64,000 bases of DNA from Actinomycetota bacterium (GCA_030679975.1 JAUXSL010000027.1:11447-75446); one strand, 5' to 3'; numbered from the stretch's first letter, positions 22,805 to 49,299 are shown. A program made the numbers and translations. Notes: generated from the sequence alone by a model not told the origin.

Positions 22805-22805
22805 C

Positions 22806-23789
22806 TTAATTTTCGACCTTGTCCGGGGGTAACGGTTTCGCTTGGTCGGAATACCATTGATACGTGCTTTTAAGTCCTTCACGCAAGCCGATAGCGGCCT
22901 GCCAGCCAAGGCTATTAAGCTTGGCGACATCGAGCAGCTTGCGGGGCATGCCGTCTGGTTTTGAGGCATCAAAGCTGATATCGCCGGTAAAAACGGCAAC
23001 CTCTTTTATCAACAGGGCCAGCTCTTTTATAGATATGTCCTGGCCAACACCGATATTAATGAGTTTGCCGCTATTGTAAGACCGCATGAGAAAAAGGCAA
23101 GCGTCGGCCAGATCATCAACATGCAGGAACTCGCGCCTGGGGTTGCCCGATCCCCAGACCTCGACAGACTTAGCGCCGGCGGCTTTAGCTTCGTGAAACT
23201 TGCGGATTAAAGCCGGTAAGACATGGGAGTTCTTGAGATCAAAGTTATCGTTTGGTCCATAGAGGTTTGTGGGCATGACCGAAATGAAGTTCGTCCCGTA
23301 CTGGTAATTGTAGCTTTGACACATCTTGATGCCGGCGATTTTTGCAAGCGCATAAGCGTCATTTGTCGGCTCCAAGGGCCCGGTTAAGAGATACTCTTCC
23401 TTGATCGGCTGGGGCGCTTTTTTCGGATAGATACAGGAACTGCCCAAAAAGAGCAATTTTTTGACGCCGGAAATGTAAGCATTATGGATTACGCTGGTCT
23501 CAATCAGCAAGTTGTCTCGAATAAATTCTGCCGGGCAGTGGCTGTTTGCCCAGATGCCGCCCACTTTAGCCGCAGCCATGAAAACATATTCCGGACGCTC
23601 CGCGGCAAAAAAAGCTTTAACGTCCGCGTTTTCGCGCAGATCAAGCTCATTGTGTGAGCGCGTGATCAAGTTGTGGAAACCTTCCGCCTCAAGTTTGCGG
23701 ACGAGAGCGGAGCCGGCTAGCCCTGAATGTCCGGCCACATATATCTTCGAGTCTCCGCTGAAGTGATCTTTCGGGCTCATAATGCTCAA
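22806..23789 (-). CDS. fcl: GDP-L-fucose synthase (GDP-4-keto-6-deoxymannose 3,5-epimerase/4-reductase)
   Basis: [26 protein letters not shown] and [15 protein letters not shown] motifs. Confidence 0.85.
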
Positions 23790-27202: not shown

Positions 27203-28028
27203 AAGCGATAGCCAGGCCGCATCCGGCGATGAGCGCGGCTAAGGCGGCGAAGATCAAGTTCGCGGTGATGTTGGGCGATGCCGGCGTGGTTGGTCTAACC
27301 GCGGCGGTCAGGATCTTGGTGCGCGGCCCTTCTTCGAGATTGTTCATCAATGTCTGCTCTTGGGCCAATAGTGACTGCTCGCGATCGACCAAGAGCAGTT
27401 TTTGATCGATTAGCCGCGGCCGCTGCTCCTCTAATGCCGCCAGCCTTTGGTTTAGAGCAAAGACGATTATCGCTTTTTCCGAGGCCGGAATATCCTTGTT
27501 TTCAGCTTGCGCCAGCTCTTTTTTGGCCGCCCGTATCTCACCATCTATATGGGTGGTGTCCAGCAACGGTTGTTTGATCTTGGATTTGCCGGAGTTTTGC
27601 TTGTACAGGATCTCGTCAAGCCATTTAAGCGTTGCGCGCGTTATACGCAGTTGAGCGGCTGTTTTCTCGGCCTCGGGATCGACTGTCTTGGCATAGGCAA
27701 TAAATCTTTGTGCCGCTAGGTTGGCTATTTTATGTACAGAAGTTTTGTCGGGCGCGCTGACGGTTATGGCTATGATGTTGGACCCGGTGGCGTTTTCCGC
27801 GTGAACCATTTTCTTCAGTTCCAAAACGCTATATTTGAACTTGCCCTTATTAATGACTTCAGTCAGCAGGGTATCGCTAACGATTACCTCATTTAAGGCT
27901 GTCGGTGTATTAAAGACGCCGAGGGCGACCGGGCTGAGCATGACAGTCGAGGATGCCTCGTAAGTAATCTGCCGGATATTGATAAGTCCGGTGGTCATCA
28001 TAGTCACGACCATAAAAAAAGCAATCAA
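27171..28028 (-). CDS. Wzz-like polysaccharide co-polymerase (chain-length determinant)
   Basis: N-terminal transmembrane helix, a long coiled-coil periplasmic region and a C-terminal transmembrane helix (LIFAALAALIAGCGLAIAY). Confidence 0.6.
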   Translation of the reverse strand: MIAFFMVVTMMTTGLINIRQITYEASSTVMLSPVALGVFNTPTALNEVIVSDTLLTEVINKGKFKYSVLELKKMVHAENATGSNIIAITVSAPDKTSVHKIANLAAQRFIAYAKTVDPEAEKTAAQLRITRATLKWLDEILYKQNSGKSKIKQPLLDTTHIDGEIRAAKKELAQAENKDIPASEKAIIVFALNQRLAALEEQRPRLIDQKLLLVDREQSLLAQEQTLMNNLEEGPRTKILTAAVRPTTPASPNITANLIFAALAALIAGCGLAIAYETVGQGAAL

Positions 28029-28186: not shown

Positions 28187-29320
28187 CTATTTTACCGCTA
28201 TCGGCCGCTCTATGGCGACGGCCAGCGTCCTACATACATAGGTGACTTGCTTCTCACTCAATTGCGGGTACATCGGTAGGGATAAAACTTCTGTCGTTGC
28301 TAGTTCGCTTTGTGGATATGCTCCGGCGACCAGCCCTAAGTCAGCGTAGGCGGGTTGCAGATGGATGGGGAGCGGGTAATGAACGGCACTGTCGATGCCG
28401 CGATTCGCCAGTCTCTCCCTGATCGGGTCTCGCTCTTTGACGCGAATTGTATACTGGTGCCAGACATGTGTTCGGTTAGCGCCGGTTGCCGGTCGTTTGA
28501 CGCCCGGCAGTTCCGACAACAATGTATCATATAGGCCCGCACGCGAGCGCCGGGCCGCCGTCCAATTTTCGAGGCGCTTAAGTTTGGTTCTGACTACGGC
28601 GGCCTGCAGTTCGTCCAAGCGGCTGTTATATCCGATTTCTTCATGGTAATACTTCCGGCTGCTGCCGTGAGCTCTGAGCCGGCGGATTCGGCCGGCCGTT
28701 TCTTCGTCGTCGGTGACGATCATCCCACCGTCGCCGGCGCCGCCCAGATTTTTGCTGGGGAAGAAGCTTAGGCAGCCAATATTGCCGATCGATCCGACCC
28801 GTTTGTCCTTGTATTCGGCGCCGATAGCTTGGGCGCAATCTTCGACTACAGCGAGCTTGTATTTTCCGGCCAAGGTCATGATCTCAGCCATATCGGCCGG
28901 TTGTCCGTATAAGTGGACGGGCAAGATCGCGCGGGTGCGCGGGGTGATTTTAGCTTCGATCTGCCCGACATCCAAATTGTATGTCGCCGGATCGATATCG
29001 ACGAAGACAGGCACGGCGCCGCAATAAGATATAGCTTCGACGGTAGCGATAAAAGTAAACGGCGTAGTGATGACTTCGTCGCCGGGTCCAACACCTAAAG
29101 CACGCAAAGCCAGGTGCAGGGCGTCTGTTCCCGATGCGACCCCGACCGCGAAGCGGGCGCCGCAAAAGGCGGCGATCTCATCTTCCAGAGCGGCTACATT
29201 GGGGCCAAGGATAAACCTGCCGTCGGCCAGGGTTTGGTTAACGGCTGCCGTCAGTTCGTCTTTTATCTCTAAATACTGGGCCTTAAGATCAACGACGGGT
29301 ATCATCAATCGCTTAACCAC
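28187..29320 (-). CDS. DegT/DnrJ/EryC1-family PLP-dependent sugar aminotransferase (WbpE-like)
   Basis: N-terminal VDLKAQYLEIKDEL. A conserved lysine region (SFFPSKNLGGAGDGG). 377 aa. Confidence 0.85.
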   Translation of the reverse strand: MVKRLMIPVVDLKAQYLEIKDELTAAVNQTLADGRFILGPNVAALEDEIAAFCGARFAVGVASGTDALHLALRALGVGPGDEVITTPFTFIATVEAISYCGAVPVFVDIDPATYNLDVGQIEAKITPRTRAILPVHLYGQPADMAEIMTLAGKYKLAVVEDCAQAIGAEYKDKRVGSIGNIGCLSFFPSKNLGGAGDGGMIVTDDEETAGRIRRLRAHGSSRKYYHEEIGYNSRLDELQAAVVRTKLKRLENWTAARRSRAGLYDTLLSELPGVKRPATGANRTHVWHQYTIRVKERDPIRERLANRGIDSAVHYPLPIHLQPAYADLGLVAGAYPQSELATTEVLSLPMYPQLSEKQVTYVCRTLAVAIERPIAVK

Positions 29321-29797
29321 TCGTCCTGCGGCACATCGCGGATTATGCGGGCCGGGATACCCATGACCAGTTTGGCGTCCGGGACATCCTTAGTCACTAC
29401 CGAACCGGCAGCGACAAAAGCTTCGCGGCCGATAGTGATGCCCGGCAAAAGGAGCGAGGCGCCGCCGATGCGGGCGCCGCAAAAGGCGGCGATCTCATCT
29501 TCAAGAGCGGCTACATTGGGGCCAAGGATAAACCTTCCGTCGGCCAGAACTTGGTTAACGACTGCCGTCAGTTCGTCTTTTATTTCTAAATACTGGGCCT
29601 TAAGATCAACAACAGGTAGCATTAGCTGCTTAACCACTCGTCCTCCGGCACATCGCGGATTATACGGGCCGGGATACCCATGACCAGTTTGCCGTCGGGA
29701 ACATCCTTAGTTACTACCGAGCCGGCGGCGACAAAAGCTTCGCGACCGATAGTGATGCCCGGCAAAAGGAGCGAGGCGCCGCCGATGCGGGCGCCGC
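29153..29797. repeat. Tandem duplication of two 317-bp units, about 95% identical, bounded by 11-bp GCGGGCGCCGC microhomologies
   Basis: The GCGGGCGCCGC motif occurs at 29153-29163, 29470-29480 and 29787-29797. Each unit is the degT 5' end, the intergenic spacer, and the acetyltransferase 3' end. Confidence 0.85.
29305..29637 (-). pseudogene. Chimeric in-frame ORF created by the duplication: DegT N-terminus fused to acetyltransferase C-terminus
   Basis: Residues 1-56 are near-identical to the DegT N-terminus (MVKQLMLPVVDLKAQYLEIKDELTA...FCGAR). Residues 57-110 are near-identical to the acetyltransferase C-terminus (IGGASLLLPGITIGREAFVAAGSVV...). The junction is GAR, encoded by the microhomology. 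Confidence 0.5.
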
Positions 29798-30368
29798 GTT
29801 TAACGTGGGCGCCCTTGATCTTATTAAAACGATTGACGCCGCGTCCCATGGCATTGTCGTTAGTGGTTGTCACCATGGGCGCGATAAAGACGCGTTCCTC
29901 TAAGACAACATAAGCGGTGATGTAGGCGCCCGTCTGAATCTTAGTATATGAGCCGACTGAAACGTCGTTTTCAATAGTGACCCGACAGCCGATCATCACA
30001 AAATCGCTGATGTGACATCGCTCGCGCACAACGGCCAGATCGCCGATTAAGGTTGAGGTTCCGATGGTCGATCCGGCAAAAACGATGGCGCCGGAGCCGA
30101 TGATGCAATTGTCGCCGACAATTAGGGAAAGCGGATCGGCGCTGATTTTTACGGTACTTGTCGGTCCGGGGCGGGATTTTCTGCCTATAACTGCGTTATC
30201 GCCGATCACGACATTTTTTCCAATCGTGGTGCCGGCATGCACGACAACATTATTGCCGATTGTCACACCGGCGCCAATCCTGGCGTCCTCTGCCACGGCC
30301 GCATTTTTTCCAAGGATGATATCAGTCAACCACAATCTCCTTGAGATCGATAGGTCGGCCGTTTTCAT
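29622..30368 (-). CDS. Hexapeptide-repeat sugar N-acetyltransferase (WbpD/PglD-like)
   Basis: Left-handed beta-helix repeats (IGAGVTIGNNVVVHAGTTIGKNVVIGDNAVIG). The C-terminal LLLPGITIGREAFVAAGSVV is typical of UDP-amino-sugar acetyltransferases. Confidence 0.8.
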   Translation of the reverse strand: MKTADLSISRRLWLTDIILGKNAAVAEDARIGAGVTIGNNVVVHAGTTIGKNVVIGDNAVIGRKSRPGPTSTVKISADPLSLIVGDNCIIGSGAIVFAGSTIGTSTLIGDLAVVRERCHISDFVMIGCRVTIENDVSVGSYTKIQTGAYITAYVVLEERVFIAPMVTTTNDNAMGRGVNRFNKIKGAHVKRGARIGGASLLLPGITIGREAFVAAGSVVTKDVPDGKLVMGIPARIIRDVPEDEWLSS

Positions 30369-31404
30369 TGAGTGAGGCCTGGGCCGCTTGCAGAATTCTC
30401 AGTACATCGAGGCCATTTTGTCCGTCGGTAAGCGGACGACGACCGGTCCGGACGCAATCCAGAAAATGGTTGCATTCTAAGGCTAATGGTTCTTGCATTT
30501 TAATGCTGGGTATTAATATGTCGCCAAAGCGTAAGGTCAGGTCATCACCATATTTTTTATAGCCGGCCGACAAATCAGCCCCTTTGTCATAAAGGCGGAC
30601 TTTTTCCGAGCTTTCCATATCGTCGAAGACGACCATCTTCTTGCTGCCGACAACAGTGAATTTTCGGGTTTTGTGCGGGTCCAGCCAGCTGACATGTGAG
30701 TGGGTCGCGATTCCGCCTTCAAAAACGATGGTGACAAAGACAACATCTTGCACGCCCGGCCTCAGGCAGCACTGCCCAACAGCTGCGACGCTGAGCGGCT
30801 GTTTGCCGATTAAGTGGAGGGCGACGGCGACATCATGGGGCGCCAGGCTCCAGAGGGCGTTCTCGTCTTTTCGCACGGTGCCCAGGTTCAGGCGTTGAGA
30901 GTATAGATAGTAGACATCGCCTATATCTTGTTTGTCGATCAAAGACTTAATTAGTGTAATAGCCGGGTGGTACATCAGCAGGTGACCGACCATGAGTATC
31001 CGGTCGAAGCGGTCGGCGAGGTCTATCAGAGTCTGCGCCTCGCGAATATCCAGCGTAATCGGTTTTTCCACAAAGACATGCTTTCCGGCTTTGAGCGCCG
31101 CCTCGGCGTGCTTAAAGTGCATCGGCGCGGGCGAGGCTACGACCACGGCGTCGATCTCATCATCAAGAAATACTTCCGATATGTCGGCGGTAGTCCTTGT
31201 TTCCGGATACCGACTTGCCAGGGCTTCCAATCGAGCTATGGCCAGGTCGCAGACTGTCGTTAAATTGGATTCGGGTAGCTCGGCGAACTTGCGCACCAGG
31301 TTTTGGCCCCACCGGCCGGCGCCGATTACAGCTACATTGACAGGCTTGATTGGCTTCTTGTCGACCGGAGTCAGTTGCGCCGGCGGATCTTTTGTCATAT
31401 CCAC
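30322..31404 (-). CDS. Gfo/Idh/MocA-family NAD-dependent oxidoreductase (WbpB-like)
   Basis: N-terminal VAVIGAGRWGQNLVRKF Rossmann fold, and an EKPI motif. Confidence 0.8.
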   Translation of the reverse strand: MDMTKDPPAQLTPVDKKPIKPVNVAVIGAGRWGQNLVRKFAELPESNLTTVCDLAIARLEALASRYPETRTTADISEVFLDDEIDAVVVASPAPMHFKHAEAALKAGKHVFVEKPITLDIREAQTLIDLADRFDRILMVGHLLMYHPAITLIKSLIDKQDIGDVYYLYSQRLNLGTVRKDENALWSLAPHDVAVALHLIGKQPLSVAAVGQCCLRPGVQDVVFVTIVFEGGIATHSHVSWLDPHKTRKFTVVGSKKMVVFDDMESSEKVRLYDKGADLSAGYKKYGDDLTLRFGDILIPSIKMQEPLALECNHFLDCVRTGRRPLTDGQNGLDVLRILQAAQASLNENGRPIDLKEIVVD

Positions 31405-31407
31405 ATT

Positions 31408-32760
31408 CTACAACCCCACAATGTTCGGTCCGGCGAAAGCGGCGAAAGCGTTTCGGGTATCTATAATTAATTTGGAGCGTTTTGCCAGCTCTTCATAAGG
31501 ATAAGCGCTGTGGTCGGCGCAGAGTACGATGCAATCGAAGGACTCAATTGCTAAACTTTCCAGTATTTGTGAAGCGTAGCTGTCCGAGCCTAACGTCACG
31601 GATGGGATAAACGGGTCGCTGTAGATTACCTTCGCTTGAGCTCCAATCAAGAGCTCCATGATCTCTAGGCCGGGGGACATGCGGGCGTCGTCTATATCTT
31701 TCTTATACGCTACCCCCAAAATCAGGATTTTTGCCCCTCGCAGGCATTTACCGGCCTGATTTAGCGCTTTGTTGATCTTTTCCATAACAAACAAGGGCAT
31801 CTGCAGATTGACCTCGCCCGCCAATTCTATGAATCGGGTATGGAAGTCATACTGCCTGGCCTTCCAGGTCAGATAGAAAGGGTCGACCGGTATGCAATGT
31901 CCGCCGACCCCCGGCCCGGGGTAGAAGCTCATCATACCAAAAGGCTTGGTTGCCGCCGCGTCGACGACTTCCCAAACACTAATGCCCATCTTATCGCAGA
32001 GCAGTGCGAGTTCATTGACGAGGGCTATATTGACCGCTCGAAATGTGTTTTCAAAGACCTTGGTCATCTCCGCGACTTTTGGCGAGCTGACGGGCACGAT
32101 GGTCATGATCGTCTGCGAGTAAAGAGCGGTCGCGGTCTTTAGGCAGTTCTCGGTTACGCCTCCGACGACCTTGGAAATATTTTTTGTGGTAAACCGTTTA
32201 TTGCCCGGATCGACTCTTTCCGGTGAAAAAGCCAGGAAATAATCGACGCCGATTTCAAGGCCGCTCGCGGCCAGGATGGGCAAAACCACTTCTTCGGTCG
32301 TCCCGGGGAAGGTTGTGCTTTCCAAGACCACCATTTGTCCGGGGCGCAGGTATTGAGCGATCTCCTTGGTGGTTGAGATGATGTAGGAGATATCGGGGTC
32401 GCGGGCCGCGTCAAGCGGCGTCGGCACGCAGATTATGATGACATCGGCCTTGGCCAGCACCGAGTAATCATCGGTCGCCCTGATCTTCCCTGTCGCCACG
32501 AGCTCGGCCAGCTCTTTATCTTCGACGTCGGAAATATAATTTTGGCCGGCGTTTATCATCTCCATCCGCTCGACCTTTTGCTCGATGCCGATGACCGTAA
32601 AGCCGACTTTAGCTTTCTCCACCGCCAAGGGCAGGCCGACATAGCCCATACCGATGACGACGATGACGGCTGTTCGGGCGCTTATCTTTTCTTCAAGCGC
32701 CAGAATAGGTGGTGACGGCGCTTCTCTTAAAGCCAATTTCTCCTCGATGGGTCGATACAA
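31408..32760 (-). CDS. UDP-N-acetyl-D-glucosamine/mannosamine 6-dehydrogenase (WbpA/WecC-like)
   Basis: N-terminal VIGMGYVGLPLAV. Catalytic region GGHCIPVDP. 450 aa. Confidence 0.85.
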   Translation of the reverse strand: MYRPIEEKLALREAPSPPILALEEKISARTAVIVVIGMGYVGLPLAVEKAKVGFTVIGIEQKVERMEMINAGQNYISDVEDKELAELVATGKIRATDDYSVLAKADVIIICVPTPLDAARDPDISYIISTTKEIAQYLRPGQMVVLESTTFPGTTEEVVLPILAASGLEIGVDYFLAFSPERVDPGNKRFTTKNISKVVGGVTENCLKTATALYSQTIMTIVPVSSPKVAEMTKVFENTFRAVNIALVNELALLCDKMGISVWEVVDAAATKPFGMMSFYPGPGVGGHCIPVDPFYLTWKARQYDFHTRFIELAGEVNLQMPLFVMEKINKALNQAGKCLRGAKILILGVAYKKDIDDARMSPGLEIMELLIGAQAKVIYSDPFIPSVTLGSDSYASQILESLAIESFDCIVLCADHSAYPYEELAKRSKLIIDTRNAFAAFAGPNIVGL

Positions 32761-32928
32761 CCAGCGTCCCTGAAAGCTAGGAAGTCCTTATAGACCGACC
32801 AGAATACTACCAGACTCATCTTGGCTTTCCAAGGAGACCGTTTGGAGTTTTTGTCGATTTTCTTGGACCTTTAGATAATTTTTAGTACAATCAAAGTCGT
32901 TTTAATCGCGAGTGGCTTGAGGTAGCAA

Positions 32929-34962
32929 ATGGCAAAAAAACAAGTTGTAAGAAAGCCGGGCGTGAAAAGGCCTGTCGCAAGCACGGCGGCCGGCGGGCCA
33001 AAAGAAGTCATATCGTCATATGATAAGTGGATAATGTGGCTGGTCTGCGCGATTTTGATAGCGGTGCCGCTTATCTTTTCGCGCATATCCTATGACCAAT
33101 TTGATTTAGTGAAGTTAGCGGTATTTAAGGTTTTGGTCTTAGGTATCGTGGTTATCTGGGTAGCTAAGATGCTCACAAAGCCCGAGCCGATTAGTTGGAG
33201 TTGGCGGGAAGGTTTGCTGGCGGCGTTTGTCCTCGTGGCCATCATTTCAACTTTTACCTCGATACACATCCCAACGTCGCTGCACGGCAAATATAAGAGA
33301 TATGAAGGTCTTTTGACTTTCATTACCTATATAACCGCGTATTTTGTTGTAACTCAGACATTTAAAGGTAAGAACTGGCTAAGGATAATAGTCGAGGTCG
33401 TAAGCATCACCGGCGGGATTGTCGCTCTTTACGGTATTTTGCAGTTTATCGGCTTTGACCCCATTTATTGGGGCAGTGTGCCCTTCGAGGAACGGCGGAG
33501 TTTCTCCACTTTTGGTAATCCGGACCTATTGGCCGGTTATCTGGTTTTGGCTTTCCCTTGCGCGCTGGCGGCTTACTTTAACAAGGGCAAGATAGCTTGG
33601 TTGCACGGAGTGTCGGCGTTCGTTCTAGCCTCGGGCCTTTTGACGGCTTTGACCCGGGGTGGTTGGTTGGGGGCGCTTGTCAGTGTGATCTGCATCGGCG
33701 TGCTTTTGGGCCGGCGCCTGAAGCTCTATTGGAAGAAAGTCCTCGTCCTGATCGTGCCTGTTGCCATTGTCTTGTTCGCATTAGTGATTTATTCATCGGC
33801 CATTAATTTAGATATAGTCTCCAAGTTTCAAGGGGCTTTCCAGCTTAACAGCGGCACGGCTCTGGGCCGCTTTGAAATTTGGAAGGCCGGTTGGCGGATG
33901 GTGAAGGACAGACCGTTATTCGGGCAGGGTTTGGATACCTACCGTTTAGCGTCTGAGCATTTTGAAACTAAACGATATGTCCAGTCGGTAGCAGGAACAA
34001 CTGTCTCAGATAACGCCCATAATTACTTTATTCAACTGGCGGCCGGCGGCGGCCCGATGGCGGCTCTATTGCTGTATGGGTTTTTTATCGCTTGGATAGT
34101 CAGGGCTTTAAGAATCAGACGCCGGCTGGCTGATGATAGCGAGTATCTCTTGGTAAGCTGTATCATCGCCGCCGTGATCGGTTATTTAGCGACCATGCTT
34201 GTGGGGATCAGCATCGTCGGCGCGACTTCGACTTTTTGGCTGTTGATGGGGTGTGTAACCGGATTCACGCTAAAACTTGACCCGGCCTGTCGATTCCTGG
34301 ACCTATCGAAGCGGTGGCAGGAGGCTAAGCTGGCGGCGGCGGCGGCGGCGGTAGTGGTTGTAACCGTGGTTATCGCCGGCTTTGCCGTGGCCATGTATCT
34401 TGGCGATGTCTATTTGATCAAGGGTCTGCGGTCTGCCGCCGGTGGGCAAGAGCAGCTGGCCCTGGGCAATCTTAATACGGCTATTTCGCTGTATCCGGGG
34501 AACGGGCGGATAATGTCTGAGTTGGGGCAGGCTTATATGCGCTGGGCAAGCGGGGCGGTGCAACAAAGAGATAAAAAAACCTTTACATATAGTTCACAGA
34601 AAGCTATTGAATCTTTTCGCCGTGCCAGTTTGGCGGAGCCGCCGGAAGTCGATTATCGTGTCTTTTTGGCCAATTCGTATAGTTATGTCGGTCAGACTCA
34701 AGAGGCTTTTAAGATATTAGATGAGATACTTCTTAAGCAACGGCCCTACTCCCTTCCGGCCAATCTTCTCTATGGCCAACTCTTAACGGATGAGAAGAGA
34801 AAAGCTGAGGCGGTAAAGTATTACAAAACAGCATTATCGCTAGCGTCCGCGACGCAACCGGCTCTATCCGCGCTGGCCGATTATTACAAAGAAATCGGCA
34901 ACAGAGGCAAAGCGGACTATTACCAGAAGCAATTGGACAAGGTCAACGCCGCGCCTCAGTGA
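32929..34962 (+). CDS. Wzy_C (O-antigen ligase family) membrane domain fused to C-terminal TPR repeats; candidate O-oligosaccharyltransferase
   Basis: About 12 transmembrane helices. The periplasmic-loop motif HNYFIQLAAGGGPMAA matches the Wzy_C family. Residues from about 480 to 677 form TPR-like helical repeats. SD GAGGTAG lies before the ATG. Confidence 0.75.
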   Translation: MAKKQVVRKPGVKRPVASTAAGGPKEVISSYDKWIMWLVCAILIAVPLIFSRISYDQFDLVKLAVFKVLVLGIVVIWVAKMLTKPEPISWSWREGLLAAFVLVAIISTFTSIHIPTSLHGKYKRYEGLLTFITYITAYFVVTQTFKGKNWLRIIVEVVSITGGIVALYGILQFIGFDPIYWGSVPFEERRSFSTFGNPDLLAGYLVLAFPCALAAYFNKGKIAWLHGVSAFVLASGLLTALTRGGWLGALVSVICIGVLLGRRLKLYWKKVLVLIVPVAIVLFALVIYSSAINLDIVSKFQGAFQLNSGTALGRFEIWKAGWRMVKDRPLFGQGLDTYRLASEHFETKRYVQSVAGTTVSDNAHNYFIQLAAGGGPMAALLLYGFFIAWIVRALRIRRRLADDSEYLLVSCIIAAVIGYLATMLVGISIVGATSTFWLLMGCVTGFTLKLDPACRFLDLSKRWQEAKLAAAAAAVVVVTVVIAGFAVAMYLGDVYLIKGLRSAAGGQEQLALGNLNTAISLYPGNGRIMSELGQAYMRWASGAVQQRDKKTFTYSSQKAIESFRRASLAEPPEVDYRVFLANSYSYVGQTQEAFKILDEILLKQRPYSLPANLLYGQLLTDEKRKAEAVKYYKTALSLASATQPALSALADYYKEIGNRGKADYYQKQLDKVNAAPQ

Positions 34963-35039
34963 GCGCATAGAACCCTAGCTGCTTCAAAACAAGCCTTTTC
35001 TCCTGTATAATTACCGCACTTTAAATTTGAGGTGCGCAA

Positions 35040-35783
35040 ATGGCACGAAGTTCCGTCGTCACCGAATCCGAAGCTGTCGTCAGCCGGACGCATAAGAAAA
35101 AATATAGACCGTGGCCGAGTCGGGCCATTCTTGTTTTTCTGGCCGGGGGCTTAATAGTGCTCCTTGCAGTCGGTTACCTGGGATTCTTTGGCTCCACCGA
35201 AACGAAAACCAAAGCGGCGGCCGGCCGGCTCAAGCTTCAAGGCCAAAGACTATATCGGGCCAAGAAGTACGACCAGGCGGCAGATTTTCTCAACCGCTAT
35301 CTGGGATTGGCCCCCAAAGATCAGCGTACCCGGGAACTGTTGGCCCAGATTTATTGGCAGATAGGCGACGGCTGGCGGGCATTCGCTGAATTGAATATCG
35401 TTAATCGATCTTCCGCACCAAATGGAGATCGTTTTTACAGACTGGGCTTGCTCGCCGATCAGATGGGAAAAAGGGATGAATCGGTCGTTTTTCTCAAGAA
35501 AGCTGTCGCTTTAAAGCCGGAATCTATGCTCTTCCGGGTAGAATTGGCAAAATCGCTAACGAAGCTGGAACACTATGATGAGGCGGTCGTCCAGTGGCAG
35601 GAGGCGATCGACCGATTGCCGGACAAAGACCTCTATGCCGCTGTCATCTACGCGGAGCTCGGAGATGTTCTGCGCCTAAAAGGCGATATCGAAAAAGCTA
35701 AGGAGGCATATCGCCGGGGATTGGAGATCGAGCCGGGCAACGTCTACCTCCAGGCTCAGATAGCCGGCGCCGGCGGTCAATAA
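35040..35783 (+). CDS. Membrane-anchored TPR-repeat protein
   Basis: One N-terminal transmembrane helix (ILVFLAGGLIVLLAVGYLGFF) followed by 4-5 TPR repeats. Confidence 0.7.
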   Translation: MARSSVVTESEAVVSRTHKKKYRPWPSRAILVFLAGGLIVLLAVGYLGFFGSTETKTKAAAGRLKLQGQRLYRAKKYDQAADFLNRYLGLAPKDQRTRELLAQIYWQIGDGWRAFAELNIVNRSSAPNGDRFYRLGLLADQMGKRDESVVFLKKAVALKPESMLFRVELAKSLTKLEHYDEAVVQWQEAIDRLPDKDLYAAVIYAELGDVLRLKGDIEKAKEAYRRGLEIEPGNVYLQAQIAGAGGQ

Positions 35784-35786
35784 GGC

Positions 35787-38700
35787 GTGAGTAAAGCTTT
35801 ACAACGCTATAAAATCAGATTTTGGCCTCTTTTGATAACGCTGGTCTACCTTCTTATGGCCGGCGGCGCATCCGGCAAAGCCGGTGTCAATAAAGCTATC
35901 AGTGTGCCCGCGGAGACAGCCATTGTCTCGGTTAGCCACAATCGCCGCGCGGACAGCATCGGGGCTTTCGGTCTGACATCCGGCGAACTTAGTGGCATTG
36001 AGCTGGTATTGCGCCGGCCGGATGGTTGGTTTTGGGACCCGATTACTCTTGACTGGAAGCCGGAGGCGACCTGGCAAAAGAGCTCGTTGATACCAATGAG
36101 CCCGACGACTTTCGCTTGGGACGAGATTTTAGCCGCGCCTCCCTGCGACGGAGCCAGCCTTCTCCTATTAGCCAGGGCCGTAAGCCGCCAAGGTCAGCCG
36201 GACCCGAAGCCGGCGGGCGCGCGTATCTATATCGATAACATCAAGCCGGTCGTCACCAAGTTCGACGTCGAGGGCGCGCGTTGGTCGAATAGCCGCGAAG
36301 CGACGCTAAGCCTTGAAGCTTCCGGCGCTACCACGATACAATTAGCCGAATCCCGTCAAGGTCTAAGCGCCGCCAAGAATATCCGCTACCGCGACAAAAT
36401 CAAATTCCAGTTCTCCGAAGGAGACGGGCTAAAGACGCTTTACGGAGCGTTTTTAGATAGCGTCGGGAATCGGGTAGTGGTTCCCTTAAACGGCGGACCG
36501 ATCGGTTTGGATACGGCGTCGCCGGCCGTCAACCGGTTGGCGCCGCCCGCCGAGGCCCGATCTGTCAGTGTCGGCGCCAAGATCAGCGCCGGGTTTATCG
36601 ACGACAGCGATATCGATCCCTCCACCCTAAAGAGCGAATTTGGTCCCGACGCGACTTTTTATCTCACGCAAGGTAGTCGCTGGACGACCGCGACGGTCGC
36701 TTACGACCCCAAAAAAAAGACAGCGGTGCTCACACCGGCTGAGCCCTTGGTAAAAGGTCAAGTATACACAGCCCACCTAAAGCCGGGCATTAAAGATATT
36801 GCCGGCAATGAATTTGACGACGACATCTCATGGAGCTTTCAGGCTGTTGAGCCCAGCCCGCCGGAAACAAAGATTGACGGCTTGCCGGAAGTGATGTCGG
36901 GGAAGACCAAGGTCTTGATCGAAGGAAGCGCTCATGATCCGGACGGGGTCGGGGCGGTTTCGGTGTTTGTCCGTGACGGCGACGGCCATTATTGGGATTC
37001 AATTTCAGCTACCTGGACGGCGGAACCGTTTGCGAATGACGCTATGCTTGCCCGCAAGGGGCAAAAAGAGACCGGCTGGGAGTGGCGTTGGCCTTTGCCG
37101 AGCAGTGACGGAGCCCGTTTTGTCGTGACGGCGGCGGCAAAAGATCGCTTTCTGGCGGAAGACCCCACACCGGCCGGCACTTCTCTGTTGGTGGACAACC
37201 AGCCGCCGCAAGTCGAGCGTTTGATCTTACAGAACGATCTGCCGGTTACCGCTTCAGATACGATCACTATAACCAGTCTGGTTAAAGGGGCGACGCAAAT
37301 GAGATTCGCGGCCGACTCTGCCGCTCTTAAATTTCAACGGTGGCAGTCGTTTAGCGCTGAAACCAGTTTTACTTTGCCGAAAAAGGAAGGCCGAAAAGAA
37401 GTATTCGGGCAGTGGCGGGACGCGCTCGGCAATTATTCCCGAGTAGGGGAGGCTGGGAGCAAAGGTAGGATCATCTTAGATAAAAGCGGCCCTAAGGTTG
37501 CATCGACCTATCCCCACGATCAGGTTGAAAACGTAAATATCTCAGTGATGGTTACGGCCAATTTCGAAGAGATCAGCCTGGATGAAACCGGGATAACCAC
37601 CGATACATTCAAGCTAATCGGTCCCGACAAAAATCCGGTTCCGGCCGCGGTCACATTCGATCAGCTGTCAAAGACGGCTACGCTCACGCCCATTGAGTTC
37701 TTGCGATACGGGACCGGCTATAGAGTGATATTAAGCGGCGCCATCAAAGATCGGCTTGGTAACACCATCGGTCATGATTATGGCTGGACATTCAAGACGG
37801 TCGGGCTGTCGACGCATCCGCCGGCTCGTCCTCAAGGTTTGACGGTGGCGGCGGCGGAGCAAGGCGACAAGGTGTCGTGGTCGCCTCCTTTGGGAATCGA
37901 CAAGGGCAACGACTTCGACCCGCCCGTCCAGGGCGGCTACAACATTTATCGCGCCTCGTCTCCTGACGGACCGTTTGAGCTGGTAAACAAACTCCCCGTA
38001 ACGGCTTTGACTTACTACGACAAAGACTACGAACGGCCGGGCCGAAGGTTTTACATGGTCAAAGCGGTCGATGCCGGAGGCAGTGAAAGTGAAGGTTCGC
38101 CGGTCTCCGCCAATGATGATATAAACACGTTGATTAAAATCGCCCCCGGTAAGCCGGCCACCGTGACGCTCTCAAATGACGCCCTGAGACTGGAAGTGCC
38201 GAAGATCGAGCGACCGATGACGCTGCGCATCAAGACCAGGGAGGCGTTAGGCGCGCCGGCTACGCCGATGCGTCTCTTTCAGCTGGATTCAAGCCCGACC
38301 GTCAACCTTAAGACCTTGTCTTTAGTCTTGCCCGGAGACCCTATGGGGGCGACGATAATGCGGAGGGAAGAAGGCGGGTGGCAGCCACTGGCGGACGTGA
38401 CTTATTCGCGCGATCCGTTGACTCACATCGTCACAGTCGGGCCGGTCTCGTCAAGCGGACAATACTTAGTCGTCAATCGCGCGGACTTGACTCCGCCGCC
38501 GTCGGCCCCGGAAGTACATCTGTCAACGAGAGAGGGAAAGCCGCTTGTCGGTTGGTCCAAGATCAACGATCCGGACAGCGGCATCAGGGCCTACCGGCTG
38601 TGGCGCACGGAAACAACCATGACTTTCGAAACTTCGACGACCGCGGCCGCCGTCAATCTGCCGCCCGGCATGAACAGGTTCTTGGATAACAGCGCGGAGC

Positions 38701-40394
38701 CCGGCCACACCTATTACTATTGGGTCGCCGGTGTAAACGGCGCCGATTTGCCGAGTCCCATCGGGGGAGCGGATCCGACCGTCACGGCGCGCCCGATGGT
38801 GGAGCATCGGCCGCGTGTCGCCGGCGTCGTTAATTGTCAGTCATGTCATATTGAAAGACGGGTCCAAAGTGATATGGGGTTGATCGACTGCCGCCGCTGT
38901 CATGACGGGACCGGCAGCCTTGTCATCATTACCGGCTACGATAGCGGAAGTTCGCTCTGCCGGTCATGCCATGCGCTCAGCCGGGGACAGCTCAACCGGG
39001 CGGGCGGCTCGCAGATCGGGCGGTGCGGCGGTTGCCATACCAAGGGAGATTCACCGATCCTGGTTAGCGATAATGGTCACACCGGCCGCTCGGGACTGGA
39101 CTCAATGGTTTGCTCCAGCTGCCACAGCCTCCACCGACCGGGGGACAGTAAAAGCGGGTATTTGGTCGACCCGGCTAATACAAGGCGGTCTTGGTCGGGC
39201 TCTAAAAGCGATTTTTGCCTTGTCTGTCATCGCGCGACCGGCTGGCCGGAAGCGACCGAGACTTTGGAGAGGTTTGTGGCAAGGGACGTCATTTTTTCCA
39301 GCATGGAGAGCGCCCGGTTGTTTCCGGGGTGGTCAAAAACCGGTTGGAAACAGTCGGCGCATCAAAGAGTAGCCGGGTGTTTGACCTGCCATGAGCCGCA
39401 CAAGTCCCCGAACGCGCGGTTGGTCGCTTTTCGCGCCAAAGGGGGCAAGTATATCTACTTTTCGGAGTTTAGCGCTTCCGAAGCTCTTTGCTATGAATGC
39501 CACCGCCCCGGCGGCCCGAAGGGCGCGGTCGATTTATTGACGTTGTCGCGGTTGCCTTCGACCCATAGCGCCGGCACCTTCAGTGTCCACAGCGATGCTG
39601 AAACGGCGTCGCAGCTGGGCATATTAAACAGGCATGTAAATTGCAACGATTGTCATAATGTCCACGAATCGCAGAGGGAGAAGCGGGAACTCTTTTCCAA
39701 CAGGGTTTCCGGCGCTTTAAGGGGAGTACCCGGCGTTGAGCCGCTAAACGGCGGAGCGGGCTTGCCGCCGAGTTATACGGAGGTCTACGCCGCGGGGCGC
39801 GAGTACCAGATCTGCTTCAAGTGCCATTCTTCATATGTGAAGATGCCGCCGGCCGGCATGACCGATTACGCGATCAAGTTTAATCCGGCCAATTCTTCAT
39901 ACCATCCGGTGGAAACGAGGGGCAAAAACCGCGGGATAAAATCGGTGGCCTTTGTTAATGGTTGGAACCAGAAAGCGACAATGTATTGTTCCGATTGTCA
40001 CGCCAATCGGAAGGAGCCGGGTGTGGCCCGCGGGCCGCACGGGTCCAAGTTTAACCCTATGCTGGCCGGTGAGTTTGGCCCGCTTGCCGACGCCGGGCGC
40101 CAAGACGAGCTCTGCTACCAATGCCACAACCAAAAGACCTATAAGGAAGGTCGAGAAGGTAGCCGCTGGCAAGGTCCGGGCGGGCATGCCGACCACATAA
40201 GCAAGGACAAAATCGGGTGTTTTAAATGCCACGAAACCCATGGCAGCAGTTTTACCGACCATCTGATAAAGATTATGCAACCTCTTGAAGCTTCGGGGAC
40301 CACAGCTTTTTCACACGATTCGACCGGCGGCGGTTGCATAGCTACCTGTCACACGCGGCCGAATGACAGCTATCAATATAAACACGCGTATTAG
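35787..40394 (+). CDS. Large secreted multidomain protein: signal peptide, Ig-like (SbsA_Ig/Big-like) and FN3-like modules, and a C-terminal multihaem c-type cytochrome domain
   Basis: Hydrophobic N-terminus (PLLITLVYLLMAGGASG). Two SbsA_Ig-like modules, each ending in a ...AGNEF/...LGNTIGHDYGW pattern. Two FN3-like modules (YNIYRAS..., YRLWRTE...). Over the last 520 aa (nt about 38830-40394) there are 13 CxxCH motifs, many as CxxCHxxH, plus one CxxxCH. Confidence 0.8.
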   Translation: MSKALQRYKIRFWPLLITLVYLLMAGGASGKAGVNKAISVPAETAIVSVSHNRRADSIGAFGLTSGELSGIELVLRRPDGWFWDPITLDWKPEATWQKSSLIPMSPTTFAWDEILAAPPCDGASLLLLARAVSRQGQPDPKPAGARIYIDNIKPVVTKFDVEGARWSNSREATLSLEASGATTIQLAESRQGLSAAKNIRYRDKIKFQFSEGDGLKTLYGAFLDSVGNRVVVPLNGGPIGLDTASPAVNRLAPPAEARSVSVGAKISAGFIDDSDIDPSTLKSEFGPDATFYLTQGSRWTTATVAYDPKKKTAVLTPAEPLVKGQVYTAHLKPGIKDIAGNEFDDDISWSFQAVEPSPPETKIDGLPEVMSGKTKVLIEGSAHDPDGVGAVSVFVRDGDGHYWDSISATWTAEPFANDAMLARKGQKETGWEWRWPLPSSDGARFVVTAAAKDRFLAEDPTPAGTSLLVDNQPPQVERLILQNDLPVTASDTITITSLVKGATQMRFAADSAALKFQRWQSFSAETSFTLPKKEGRKEVFGQWRDALGNYSRVGEAGSKGRIILDKSGPKVASTYPHDQVENVNISVMVTANFEEISLDETGITTDTFKLIGPDKNPVPAAVTFDQLSKTATLTPIEFLRYGTGYRVILSGAIKDRLGNTIGHDYGWTFKTVGLSTHPPARPQGLTVAAAEQGDKVSWSPPLGIDKGNDFDPPVQGGYNIYRASSPDGPFELVNKLPVTALTYYDKDYERPGRRFYMVKAVDAGGSESEGSPVSANDDINTLIKIAPGKPATVTLSNDALRLEVPKIERPMTLRIKTREALGAPATPMRLFQLDSSPTVNLKTLSLVLPGDPMGATIMRREEGGWQPLADVTYSRDPLTHIVTVGPVSSSGQYLVVNRADLTPPPSAPEVHLSTREGKPLVGWSKINDPDSGIRAYRLWRTETTMTFETSTTAAAVNLPPGMNRFLDNSAEPGHTYYYWVAGVNGADLPSPIGGADPTVTARPMVEHRPRVAGVVNCQSCHIERRVQSDMGLIDCRRCHDGTGSLVIITGYDSGSSLCRSCHALSRGQLNRAGGSQIGRCGGCHTKGDSPILVSDNGHTGRSGLDSMVCSSCHSLHRPGDSKSGYLVDPANTRRSWSGSKSDFCLVCHRATGWPEATETLERFVARDVIFSSMESARLFPGWSKTGWKQSAHQRVAGCLTCHEPHKSPNARLVAFRAKGGKYIYFSEFSASEALCYECHRPGGPKGAVDLLTLSRLPSTHSAGTFSVHSDAETASQLGILNRHVNCNDCHNVHESQREKRELFSNRVSGALRGVPGVEPLNGGAGLPPSYTEVYAAGREYQICFKCHSSYVKMPPAGMTDYAIKFNPANSSYHPVETRGKNRGIKSVAFVNGWNQKATMYCSDCHANRKEPGVARGPHGSKFNPMLAGEFGPLADAGRQDELCYQCHNQKTYKEGREGSRWQGPGGHADHISKDKIGCFKCHETHGSSFTDHLIKIMQPLEASGTTAFSHDSTGGGCIATCHTRPNDSYQYKHAY

Positions 40395-40479
40395 GAGGGA
40401 AGTAAGGCGTCGATTATAATCTGGATACAGTCGGCCGGCGGTTGCCTTGCGAGCACTGTCACGAGATTAAGGGTTGTTA

Positions 40480-41565
40480 ATGTCGGATTGGGTCAGGAAA
40501 TCGCTTGAACAAATTGAGGCGTACCGCGCGGGCAGACGGGCCTCGGAGGTAAAAGGGGAGCTCGGCTTAAGCGACATAATTAAGTTGTCTTCCAATGAAT
40601 CGCCGTTTGCGCCGGTCAGACAGGCATCCAGGGCGATGGGTCAGGCCCTAAAGGGTCTCAACCGGTATCCGGACGGGGATTGCCGACTTCTCAAGAGCAA
40701 ACTGGCCGCCAATCTAGACGTGGCTTATGAAACATTGATGGTCGGCAACGGCTCTAACGAGCTCATTCGTTTGCTGGCGCAAGTCATTCTGGAGCCGGGC
40801 GATGAGGTCATAATGGCGGCCCCGTCTTTTGTCGTTTACCCGATCGTCACCGCCATCATGAGCGCGATGGCGGTAGAGGTGCCGCTCAAGGGGTTGGCGC
40901 ACGATTTGGACGCTATGGCCGCGGCGATCACGCCCAAGACCAAGCTGATATTTGTCTGCAACCCCAACAATCCGACCGGGACGGTCGTCCCCGCCGCCGA
41001 CTGCGGCGCTTTCTTGGAATCGGTCCCCGGGCATGTGCTGGTCTGCTTCGACGAAGCCTACCACGAGTTTGTCTCCGACTTCACTTATGGGACAGCTCTT
41101 GAGCTGCGCGGCAAGCATGAAAATATCATTGTGTTGCGAACATTTTCAAAGATTTACGGCCTGGCGGGCGCGCGCGTCGGATACGGGATGGCGCCGCCGG
41201 CGGTAGTGGAGGCGATAGACAAGGTTCGCGAACCGTTCAACGTCAACCTTCTCGGCCAGATCGGCGCTTATTACAGCCTTGACGGGCAACCGGAAATCCG
41301 CCGGCGGGCCGCTGTCAATCGGACGCAGCGGGAGCTGGTTGAATCGGCCCTGGACCGGCTTGGCTTGGAGCGAGCGGCGTCGCAGGCAAATTTTGTCTAT
41401 TTCGATCCGCGTATGCCGGCGGCTGAGGCGTTTGACAGGCTGGCGCGGCACGGCGTCATCGTCCGCGCGTTCAGGCACGGAGACCACATCCGGGCGACGC
41501 TCGGCAGCCCCAAGGATAACCTGGTGCTGATAAACGCTCTGGGGACGTTAAAGACGCCCCCGTAA
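40480..41565 (+). CDS. hisC: Histidinol-phosphate/aromatic aminotransferase (class II PLP aminotransferase)
   Basis: Conserved segments SSNESPFAP, KIYGLAGARVGY and NPNNPTG. The ATG at 40480 is preferred over the TTG at 40474, given an upstream AAGGG. Confidence 0.85.
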   Translation: MSDWVRKSLEQIEAYRAGRRASEVKGELGLSDIIKLSSNESPFAPVRQASRAMGQALKGLNRYPDGDCRLLKSKLAANLDVAYETLMVGNGSNELIRLLAQVILEPGDEVIMAAPSFVVYPIVTAIMSAMAVEVPLKGLAHDLDAMAAAITPKTKLIFVCNPNNPTGTVVPAADCGAFLESVPGHVLVCFDEAYHEFVSDFTYGTALELRGKHENIIVLRTFSKIYGLAGARVGYGMAPPAVVEAIDKVREPFNVNLLGQIGAYYSLDGQPEIRRRAAVNRTQRELVESALDRLGLERAASQANFVYFDPRMPAAEAFDRLARHGVIVRAFRHGDHIRATLGSPKDNLVLINALGTLKTPP

Positions 41566-41644
41566 CTCAGCGCTGGTTTTTTTCGCTCATGCTTGCTAAT
41601 CTATAAAAAACTAAAACACAAACCACCAAAGGAGGAATGGCAAG

Positions 41645-42658: not shown

Positions 42659-42663
42659 AATTG

Positions 42664-49260: not shown

Positions 49261-49265
49261 GTGTC

Positions 49266-49285: not shown

Positions 49286-49299
49286 CTAAGGATGAGCTA

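Follow-up and report, generated by a model that had tools for sequence, protein, structure and literature searches.

A WaaL-fold ligase with a TPR arm beside multiheme cytochrome genes in Actinomycetota: a candidate protein O-oligosaccharyltransferase

The 64-kb stretch of DNA analysed here (the window) comes from a MAG labelled Actinomycetota. On its plus strand it contains a gene for a 677-aa Wzy_C protein with C-terminal TPRs (32929-34962), a gene for a membrane-anchored 247-aa TPR protein (35040-35783) and, 3 nt further on, a 1535-aa ORF (35787-40394). The sequence-only reading had this layout right: the TPR partner follows the Wzy_C gene, and both genes lie directly 5' of the 1535-aa ORF, are co-oriented with it and diverge from the glycan locus, which lies on the minus strand and extends up to 32760. 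An identical gene order is found in an independent assembly (Logan SRR13727519). Between the glycan locus and the divergent ligase gene, the intergenic stretch 32761-32928 holds weak promoter-like sites (32851-32891) that do not rise above chance, and scanning 32.5-40.7 kb for promoters and terminators turned up no more of them than shuffled sequences did. In the same scan no terminator was found between the ligase and TPR genes, and a 10-of-12 promoter-like site lies between them at 34983-35011, with scan counts again at shuffle level.

The 677-aa protein begins with a WaaL-like core of 12 TM helices (aa 30-446; 33016-34266), within which Wzy_C matches aa 229-382 at 75.6 bits against a Pfam cut-off of 31.7. 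The structure model has a WaaL-type fold, with 12 TM helices and a large, predicted extracytoplasmic loop between TM9 and TM10 (aa 290-369; 33796-34035). This putative catalytic loop carries Arg314 and His364, and Arg243 lies just before it, in TM8. All three residues occupy invariant columns across 35 homologs, and the columns are equally invariant in a TM-only alignment that takes in a 467-aa paralog from the glycan locus; His364 belongs to an H-N-x9-G375 motif. The conserved triad is R215/R288/H338 in E. coli WaaL and R224/R298/H349 in PglL, and its spacing of 71/50 in the present enzyme compares with 73/50 and 74/51, respectively, an invariant His and two Arg being the signature of ligases and O-oligosaccharyltransferases (O-OTases; PMC3643930). 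Full-length phmmer and profile searches of the PDB returned TPR proteins only, the membrane domain being swamped, and the TM-only alignment was used instead. The sole sequence match of the resulting profile is WaaL of Cupriavidus metallidurans (7TPG/7TPJ; E 2.9e-15), to which identity is 16-17% and in which the TRG, RLxIW and AHN motifs of 7TPG line up with the Arg/Arg/His of the enzyme. Wzy_C family membership, proposed earlier from the sequence, is thus borne out by the WaaL fold and by a triad common to WaaL and PglL, which supports placing the enzyme among the ligase-type members of the O-antigen ligase superfamily.

An IctB-like inorganic carbon transporter, the function under which database records name several homologs (JGI uses 'putative inorganic carbon transporter' for some), is hardly credible. 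The NCBIfam IctB model (TIGR00947) does match at E 7.8e-20, but the score of 71.3 bits falls far below the cut-off of 366.4 and reflects the shared Wzy_C core, and the fold, the catalytic triad and a transferase partner found in relatives all point to glycan transfer. Very unlikely, too, is a Wzy-type polymerase that would join Und-PP-linked repeat units made by an adjacent transferase and glycosyltransferases. Pfam Wzy_C covers polymerases as well as ligases, polymerase roles have been assigned to the Gram-positive Wzy_C-family proteins TuaE and WpaA/WpaB, and the PDB title of 7TPG reads 'polysaccharide polymerase/ligase'. The ligase/O-OTase signature described above argues against a polymerase, as does an identity of 28-78% across classes at a fixed position, unlike the serotype-variable polymerases. 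Neither Wzx nor a chain-length regulator is seen alongside the gene in relatives, the gene tables of the 10-kb flanks containing no Wzx- or Wzz-family Pfam matches, and a TPR arm is not known to play a role in polymerases.

WaaL has 12 TM helices, and its N and C termini are both cytoplasmic. Compared with WaaL, the 677-aa enzyme adds a thirteenth TM helix with a stalk (aa 462-504; 34312-34440) and a TPR arm of about five repeats (aa 505-675; 34441-34953). The stretch of aa 462-504 is modelled as one continuous helix; hydropathy peaks within it at aa 471-489, and the loop that precedes it is rich in K/R. This helix would return the chain to the cell exterior, and the arm is accordingly predicted to be extracytoplasmic; from the WaaL topology and the charge bias, we infer that the arm and the catalytic loop lie on the same outer side. 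The repeats of the fused arm are not duplicates of those in the 247-aa protein.

The acceptor used by WaaL itself is difficult to reconcile with the host. No lpx, kds or waa genes occur within the 64-kb window, the MAG is labelled Actinomycetota, and cultured Anaerosomatales, a lineage with the family, have a Gram-positive wall type (PMC9686372), in agreement with the earlier suggestion of a monoderm host without LPS-core genes. Among the lineages carrying the family, the Gram-positive wall is documented for two cultured Anaerosomatales only. Given the Actinomycetota host and these walls in a related lineage, a lipid A ligase role is unlikely; in a host lineage without an outer membrane the lipid A-core cannot be the acceptor, unlike for WaaL. 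An assignment as WaaL proper (lipid A-core:O-antigen ligase) is disfavoured on indirect evidence, the taxonomic labels and wall types pointing away from a diderm host and the 64-kb window showing no LPS core locus around the gene. The cultured Anaerosomatales relatives are Parvivirga hydrogeniphila and Anaerosoma tenue, which are possible carriers of the gene.

The 247-aa protein has one TM helix (aa 29-47) near its N-terminus followed by TPRs (TPR_2 E 7e-19), and is predicted to be oriented N-in with the TPRs outside. A TPR protein of 225-255 aa occupies the same slot, after the ligase or Rex and ahead of NHL/cytochrome genes, at nine loci of relatives (L001, L004, L003, L092, L093, L078, L074, L075 and L080). 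The small TPR proteins of different clades share 22-32% identity over partial lengths; because this similarity is weak and generic, their conservation is positional only.

The 1535-aa ORF encodes a giant cell-envelope multiheme cytochrome c composed of an N-terminal anchor, a region with two Big_5 domains and fn3, and, at the C-terminus, a domain containing 14 heme motifs. More precisely, the heme-binding region (aa 1017-1521; 38835-40349) contains 13 CXXCH motifs and one CX3CH (CIATCH), and is matched by the Pfam families Paired_CXXCH_1, MtrC/MtrF domain and Cytochrome_C7. The "1535-aa surface protein" of the sequence-only reading is therefore a cell-envelope protein as described, with its identity amended to a multiheme c-type cytochrome whose heme motifs lie behind the Big_5/fn3 region. 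Big_5 is the "SbsA Ig-like domain" of InterPro, named after an S-layer protein; these Ig-like domains recall SbsA, but the cytochrome is not a recognised S-layer protein. The full-length homologs found for it number only five, every one in the same neighbourhood, and PDB sequences gave just marginal c3/c7 matches. A search of the protein for a PglL-type acceptor linker found no long Ala/Ser/Pro-rich one, and the Ala/Ser/Pro/Thr-rich stretches are three and short (aa 242-257, 901-915 and 940-962).

The 677-aa family occurs only in Actinomycetota lineages that bear the labels Aquicultor, Coriobacteriia/Anaerosomatales and Geothermocultor, across which 388 clusters (50% identity, E<=1e-30) were found, mostly of 620-750 aa and with matches spanning the full length. 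All 80 species loci either bear the label Actinomycetota or belong to uncultured MAGs, some of which are mislabelled Eubacteriales or Anaerolineae; there are no cultured-organism names among the homologs listed, and none of Paenibacillus or Geobacillus among the 240 listed. The ligase keeps its fixed position across classes at 28-78% identity. Of 73 loci from the 80 species genomes, 65 have a phosphoglycosyl transferase gene immediately upstream of the ligase, and multiheme cytochrome ORFs are found within 5 kb downstream at 42 of 53 loci, as opposed to 3 of 49 upstream. For loci with at least 8 kb of flank the figures are 37/46 downstream and 5/41 upstream (Fisher p = 9e-11, shared ancestry ignored). 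The co-oriented downstream block consists of a membrane-anchored TPR protein, an NHL propeller, multiheme cytochromes and ResB/CcsA maturation genes, and the recurring order of ligase, TPR, NHL, cytochrome and ResB/CcsA is confirmed by Pfam. Sugar genes of pgl-like type adjoin the cluster in relatives (a DegT aminotransferase, a PglF-like dehydratase, GT4s and GDP-mannose supply genes). Two to four glycosyltransferases stand beside the transferase-ligase pair; neither chain-length nor export genes were seen next to it, and the flanks examined contained no recognisable flippase gene. The arrangement in the window is derived, the transferase, Rex and one cytochrome having been lost.

The expectation that relatives would conserve the three-gene block holds in part: neither of the refuting outcomes named earlier was encountered, and extracytoplasmic proteins are conserved nearby, but the most constant partner of the ligase is the phosphoglycosyl transferase and not the giant protein. 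Aquicultor-type loci keep the transferase-ligase pair and have no cytochrome within 10 kb, with menaquinone-type genes (polyprenyl synthase) after Rex in place of the cytochromes. The enzyme is therefore not dedicated to one protein, contrary to the proposal that it serves the 1535-aa protein, and cytochromes cannot be its sole substrates and may not be substrates at all. These loci also bear on an explanation in which the enzyme performs general envelope glycosylation, protein-directed or not, and its adjacency to cytochromes is inherited gene order, the transferase-ligase pair and a Rex-controlled respiratory block being independent. Rex lies between the two blocks at 45 of 73 loci, which suggests separate transcription units; synteny in close relatives extends to unrelated housekeeping genes (hisC, aroF, tyrA, aroA and UPF0182), as inherited order would have it, and the neighbourhood statistics all ignore phylogeny. 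On the other hand, the cytochrome link persists where Rex and/or the transferase are missing (L074, L075, L080, L070, L003, L020 and the window), the second Aquicultor copy, L020, sits amid four multiheme genes, the gene order is held across classes at 28-35% protein identity, and 112 of 115 downstream cytochrome ORFs are co-oriented with the ligase. Inherited order is, on balance, an unlikely explanation. Searches for the Rex operator (TTGTGAA-N4-TTCACAA) gave 3 matches in the window with up to 3 mismatches, none near the genes considered here and equalled in 38 of 100 shuffles; in 1.3 Mb of related loci, 9 sites with up to 2 mismatches were found, none adjoining transferase, ligase or Rex genes.

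The minus-strand glycan locus of the window encodes Wzt (an ABC ATPase with a Wzt_C glycan-binding domain) and Wzm (an ABC-2 permease; together 20646-22999), as well as a methyltransferase, an asparagine synthase homolog like WsfA and a GDP-mannose dehydratase, a set of genes resembling the slg clusters. It also contains a second Wzy_C protein of 467 aa without TPRs (25799-27202, minus strand; Pfam Wzy_C E 3.3e-20), which is 26% identical to the 677-aa protein with Arg/Arg/His aligned. By position this gene is a better analogue of WsaB than the 677-aa gene, which lies outside the slg-like ABC-transporter locus and diverges from it. Because the locus has a Wzy_C gene of its own, the Wzm/Wzt-exported polymer is unlikely to be the donor for the 677-aa enzyme.

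The architecture of the 677-aa enzyme does have a published precedent: WsfB of Paenibacillus alvei joins Wzy_C to C-terminal TPRs, WsaB of Geobacillus stearothermophilus has a separate TPR partner, WsaA, and both are predicted S-layer O-OTases (PMC2943079). Compared by the description in that paper, the window shares the Wzy_C and TPR combination and the Gram-positive host, and the fused and the separate form occur in it together. The two cases differ in phylum (Actinomycetota here, Bacillota for WsfB/WsaB) and in partners, which are phosphoglycosyl transferase and multiheme cytochrome genes here and an S-layer gene there. The eukaryotic TPR glycosyltransferases (OGT; TMTC1-4) have unrelated catalytic folds and donors and offer an analogy only.

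A further likeness, to PglL/TfpO, is suggested by the L003 paralog, which is located between pilin-like genes and prepilin peptidase/PilMNO genes, the classic place of a pilin O-OTase; the gene of a PglL/TfpO-type enzyme often adjoins that of its target. PglL and TfpO (PilO), which are Gram-negative O-OTases, have a Wzy_C core and the Arg/Arg/His triad as here, and PglL is the O-OTase of the general system in Neisseria (PMC3643930), whose O-glycoproteins include two membrane c-type cytochromes, CcoP and c5 (PMC2924362). The present case differs in its monoderm host and in a giant cytochrome without a long Ala/Ser/Pro-rich acceptor linker. The Pfam-A set, which presumably includes the PglL_A model, gave no PglL_A match in the 677-aa protein (E<=0.01).

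The reading tentatively favoured here, with a likelihood judged to be slightly below even, is that of a protein-directed, WaaL-fold O-oligosaccharyltransferase whose TPR arm captures envelope proteins, cytochromes among them. The enzyme would take a finished chain from undecaprenyl-pyrophosphate at the outer face of the cytoplasmic membrane and move it en bloc to an acceptor. Because such hosts have no lipid A-core, this acceptor would most likely be Ser, Thr or Tyr of a protein, the enzyme acting as a WsfB-like O-oligosaccharyltransferase. Envelope proteins tethered to the membrane may be captured by the TPR arm on their emergence, and the substrates may include the cluster's multiheme cytochromes, the 1535-aa Ig-domain cytochrome among them; the 247-aa TPR protein may serve the cytochrome module as adaptor or chaperone. 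The window lacks the transferase that usually adjoins the ligase gene, and a separate ligase-like gene belongs to the neighbouring Wzm/Wzt locus. Protein O-glycosylation by the 677-aa enzyme is plausible but unproven.

Geobacter, as Rollefson et al. are said to have reported in 2011, needs an extracellular anchoring polysaccharide to keep its c-type cytochromes. In a comparable manner, the glycan could be ligated to a non-protein envelope acceptor (a membrane glycolipid, peptidoglycan or a secondary wall polymer), forming a matrix that embeds or anchors the cytochromes, with the TPR arm as an assembly scaffold. The fold, catalytic and topology evidence fits this alternative equally, the transferase-ligase pair is kept whether or not cytochromes are nearby, as for a general envelope polymer, and the cytochrome is without obvious acceptor linkers; TPR scaffolds are also known in polysaccharide export, according to work cited in PMC2943079. 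A short oligosaccharide nonetheless fits better than a polymer with the two to four glycosyltransferases and the lack of chain-length or export genes in relatives, and the L003 paralog lies amid pilin genes. Gram-positive wall polymers, moreover, are normally attached by LCP-family enzymes. WsfB, the nearest architectural precedent, is protein-directed (PMC2943079). A non-protein acceptor has only a small chance of being correct.

Little is understood of how electrons cross the thick Gram-positive wall to reach minerals, and just a few of the participating cytochromes have been studied. The presence, in dozens of subsurface Actinomycetota species, of a ligase with a protein-binding arm next to cytochrome genes points to a testable component of this process, in the form of glycosylated cytochromes or of a glycan matrix holding the cytochromes. 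The pairing of ligase and cytochromes in about 80 related species raises the possibility of a sugar coat on these electron-conducting surface proteins or around them. A broader and doubtful proposal is that metal-respiring Gram-positive Actinomycetota depend on a dedicated glycan-transfer step in which the TPR-armed enzyme recognises wall-spanning, membrane-tethered cytochromes, and perhaps NHL proteins and pilins, and O-glycosylates them with the help of the membrane-anchored TPR protein, the wall conduit being otherwise unstable or non-functional. If true, extracellular electron transfer in monoderm bacteria would have glycosylation as an integral component that had gone unrecognised. A literature search for an O-antigen ligase linked to multiheme cytochromes or extracellular electron transfer found none, and the Anaerosomatales paper (PMC9686372) and one supplement do not mention the ligase; the cytochrome linkage of a Wzy_C-TPR ligase appears to be unreported.

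The family also brings the O-antigen-ligase/O-oligosaccharyltransferase superfamily into the Actinomycetota, and its several hundred TPR-fused variants are possible tools for glycoconjugate engineering. In databases its members are today labelled only 'O-antigen ligase family', 'TPR protein' or 'inorganic carbon transporter'.

The 677-aa protein has the ligase-type WaaL fold. The sequence-only reading had proposed this Wzy_C protein and the TPR (protein-binding repeat) protein that follows as candidate protein O-glycosylation machinery, and the two open reading frames were confirmed at 32929-34962 (+), behind a good ribosome-binding site (GAGG), and at 35040-35783 (+). The larger product carries Wzy_C (aa 229-382; 75.6 bits against a Pfam cut-off of 31.7) and, toward its C-terminus, a TPR_19 match over its own cut-off (aa 588-642). 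Arg243, Arg314 and His364 are invariant in an alignment of 35 homologs, the His within H-N-x9-G, and their spacing of 71 and 50 residues matches that in E. coli WaaL and N. meningitidis PglL, where R215/R288/H338 and R224/R298/H349, respectively, are required for ligase activity (PMC3643930). A confident AlphaFold2 model (pLDDT 89.8, pTM 0.89) has the WaaL O-antigen ligase as its best structural match (Foldseek E 4e-7), and a profile of the membrane domain alone matched a single PDB sequence, WaaL 7TPG (E 2.9e-15), and aligned all three catalytic motifs with it. Beside this fold and these residues, a role for the Wzy_C protein as a Wzy polymerase is very improbable, and one as an IctB-like transporter is scarcely conceivable. 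Judged by hydropathy and charge bias, the protein is N-in with 12 helices, like WaaL, and has Arg314 and His364 in an 80-residue outer loop (aa 290-369); a K/R-rich inner loop then leads into a 13th helix (aa 471-489) that takes the chain back outside. From the WaaL topology we infer that the TPR arm (aa 505-675) lies on the same side as the catalytic loop, that is, outward.

The ligase family belongs to a Gram-positive-type lineage. An identical 677-aa protein is recorded in an NCBI metagenome-assembled genome labelled Actinomycetota, and homologs come from Aquicultor, Anaerosomatales/Coriobacteriia, Geothermocultor and similar uncultured lineages; two cultured Anaerosomatales have a Gram-positive wall type, 17-18 multiheme cytochromes and the capacity for Fe(III) reduction (PMC9686372). 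Given this wall type of the host lineage and the absence of lipid A, Kdo and core genes from the 64-kb window, a classical WaaL role is unlikely. Matches to LpxA/LpxD and KdsA in the window fell below threshold and were cross-hits from a sugar acetyltransferase and DAHP synthase, respectively.

An exhaustive search resolved the family into 388 clusters at 50% identity (E<=1e-30), mostly of 620-750 aa and matched through the TPR arm. Neighborhoods were compared in 80 species representatives and 13 loci obtained by exact-protein look-up of window homologs (L001-L008, L089-L093), with neighbors scored by tblastn and CXXCH motif counting; transferase and Rex counts draw on 86 loci (the 80 species loci and six look-up loci) and cytochrome counts on the 80 species loci alone. 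The ligase is constantly paired with an initiating transferase and directionally linked to extracytoplasmic cytochrome genes. A phosphoglycosyl transferase of about 453 aa (CoA_binding_3 and Bac_transf) lies directly upstream in 65 of the 73 loci with enough flank, and the repressor gene Rex directly 3' in 45 of 73. An ORF with at least four CXXCH motifs occurs within 5 kb downstream of the ligase in 42 of 53 loci, as against 3 of 49 upstream; among loci with at least 8 kb of flank the comparison is 37/46 versus 5/41 (Fisher p = 9e-11, ignoring shared ancestry), and 112 of 115 downstream cytochrome ORFs share the ligase strand. Enzymes of this class and the combination of Wzy_C with TPR repeats were known before. 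What appears to be new is that TPR-armed WaaL-like enzymes form a family across the Actinomycetota, that this family is in fixed pairing with a phosphoglycosyl transferase, and that it is directionally linked to genes for multiheme cytochromes and for cytochrome maturation. A literature search found no published link of an O-antigen ligase to multiheme cytochromes or extracellular electron transfer, and the paper on the cultured relatives, which mentions the Rex-cytochrome cluster, is silent on the ligase (PMC9686372).

According to Pfam annotation of representative loci, the recurring order is GT4 glycosyltransferases and GDP-mannose genes, transferase, ligase and, where present, Rex, followed by a ~245-aa TPR protein with a membrane anchor, an NHL propeller, cytochromes with 7, 14 and 11 hemes, and ResB/CcsA. 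Variants on the ligase tree have Rex, lack Rex, place cytochromes ahead of Rex or lack the transferase; the last include L074, L075 and L080, which are flanked by giant NHL/Ig proteins and cytochromes of 23-33 CXXCH. A second Aquicultor ligase copy (L020) is surrounded by four multiheme genes, and in one clade (the Aquicultor type and a few others) transferase, ligase and Rex persist but no cytochrome lies within 10 kb. In most Coriobacteriia-type loci the TPR protein and cytochromes come with NHL-repeat beta-propeller proteins, which are either ~380 aa long or giants of 1300-1600 aa that also carry Ig-like domains (L078 13468-14610; L074 12926-14062 and 5000-9853; L080 6041-9886; L075 12787-14037).

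Within the window, the 1535-aa ORF that begins 3 nt past the 247-aa TPR gene (35787-40394, +), first described as a surface protein, is rather a giant multiheme c-type cytochrome. It contains 13 CXXCH motifs and one CX3CH, all inside aa 1017-1521, with Paired_CXXCH_1, MtrC/MtrF-like and cytochrome c7 domains (Pfam), preceded by an N-terminal anchor, two Big_5 Ig-like domains and an fn3-like region. The atypical CX3CH is the terminal motif (CIATCH, aa 1517). Its start is ambiguous between the GTG at 35787 (1535 aa, ORF tool) and about 35832, and a public gene call for the identical sequence gives 1520 aa. Housekeeping genes follow (hisC, DAHP synthase, prephenate dehydrogenase, EPSP synthase, UPF0182), and the gene order around the ligase is the same in an independent assembly. 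The 247-aa protein, with one N-terminal TM helix and then strong TPR matches (Pfam), goes with the cytochrome module by position; it could be a glycosylation adaptor or a chaperone or scaffold of cytochrome assembly, and the data fit both.

The giant cytochrome's family is very small, with only five full-length homologs (51-100% identity) among 5.8 billion proteins; at each of their loci the genes run transferase, ligase, Rex, 14-heme cytochrome (about 488 aa), TPR protein, giant cytochrome. The 14-heme protein is membrane-anchored in L001, L004, L092 and L093, and the last two loci continue into the same hisC, aroF, tyrA, aroA and UPF0182 as the window. In contrast to every other homolog's locus, the window has neither Rex nor the ~488-aa cytochrome between ligase and TPR gene; the large glycan locus occupies the place of the relatives' transferase, and the whole 64 kb contains no Bac_transf gene. 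The homologs' shared order therefore indicates that the window has lost Rex and the 488-aa cytochrome and is a derived arrangement, through which ligase, TPR protein and cytochrome were kept contiguous. Among close relatives, ligase/giant-cytochrome adjacency belongs to a general synteny block and alone is weak evidence.

In the mechanism we propose, the transferase and a few GT4 enzymes would assemble a short glycan on undecaprenyl phosphate, a putative flippase would flip it, and the ligase would then move it en bloc to an acceptor held by the TPR arm. Relatives also have a DegT aminotransferase and a PglF-like dehydratase beside the cluster, reminiscent of bacillosamine pathways. Protein is the best-supported acceptor class because of the missing lipid A-core and several precedents. 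WsfB of Paenibacillus alvei combines Wzy_C with C-terminal TPR repeats, as does the 677-aa enzyme, and Geobacillus WsaB is paired with a separate TPR protein, WsaA (PMC2943079), much as the 247-aa protein is encoded beside the enzyme. O-OTase genes commonly adjoin their targets (PMC3643930), and membrane c-type cytochromes of Neisseria are O-glycoproteins of its general system (PMC2924362), the O-OTase of which is PglL (PMC3643930). In L003, a relative's locus with a ligase 43% identical, a 749-aa Wzy_C-TPR paralog (3241-5490, within 1074-8861) has two pilin-like genes on one side and prepilin peptidase, PilM, a PilN-like gene and PilO on the other, the classic place for a pilin O-oligosaccharyltransferase. 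One of the pilin-like genes bears the class III signal 'GYSLGELMTVISVLVV', the paralog has Tyr in place of the first triad Arg, and the second ligase copy and the cytochromes come after the pilin-type genes.

Protein O-glycosylation that includes the cluster's cytochromes is the reading we tentatively favor. Against it, some lineages carry the enzyme without cytochromes nearby and Rex usually lies between ligase and cytochrome block. Also against the favored reading, a sequence search for acceptor linkers found no clear one in the giant cytochrome, no flippase was recognised in the flanks examined, and the neighborhood statistics take no account of phylogeny. Alongside the directional counts, it is unlikely that the ligase serves the envelope generally and is functionally unconnected with the cytochromes. 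The ligase might instead act on a non-protein acceptor to yield a cytochrome-anchoring glycan, which is doubtful beside the protein precedents.

The enzyme had also been tied to the Wzm/Wzt-exported glycan, a connection that is unlikely, as the 32-kb glycan locus (731-32760, opposite strand, upstream of the ligase) has its own ligase-type Wzy_C gene (25799-27202, -). Its 467-aa product, without TPR repeats, is 26% identical to the 677-aa protein over the core and has the same Arg/Arg/His. The adjoining 285-aa protein (27171-28028, -) has a TM helix at each end and a coiled segment of ~240 aa between them, matches GNVR faintly (E 0.08), and is laid out like polysaccharide co-polymerases or chain-length regulators. 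Because of this ligase-type gene and its regulator-like neighbor, the 467-aa protein is the more natural WsaB counterpart. Such a gene pair in an ABC-transporter locus is unusual in a monoderm.

Since relatives have the transferase at that place, the glycan locus may be a later insertion. G+C is 0.47-0.52 over it (window 1-27000) versus 0.56-0.60 over the cytochrome and housekeeping genes (36000-54000), and falls to 0.46-0.51 at 54-58 kb. The locus encodes many glycosyltransferases, Wzm, a Wzt bearing Wzt_C, UDP-GlcNAc 2-epimerase, GDP-mannose dehydratase with an epimerase/reductase, and a methyltransferase. Its sole plus-strand ORFs encode a 404-aa protein with nine or more hydrophobic segments (7553-8767) and a 266-aa protein hydrophobic at both ends (8730-9530); neither has a Pfam match even at E 0.5, and they may represent an unrecognised membrane glycosyltransferase or polymerase. 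Four sugar genes and an asparagine synthase homolog (28187-32760 and 4040-6004, -) also lie in the locus. The four (nucleotide-sugar 6-dehydrogenase, Gfo/Idh/MocA oxidoreductase, hexapeptide acetyltransferase, DegT aminotransferase) form the WbpA/B/D/E domain set and, judged by their domains, would provide a WbpA/B/D/E-like route to 2,3-diacetamido-2,3-dideoxy-uronic acid; the 654-aa asparagine synthase homolog is a parallel to WsfA in the S-layer glycan locus of P. alvei.
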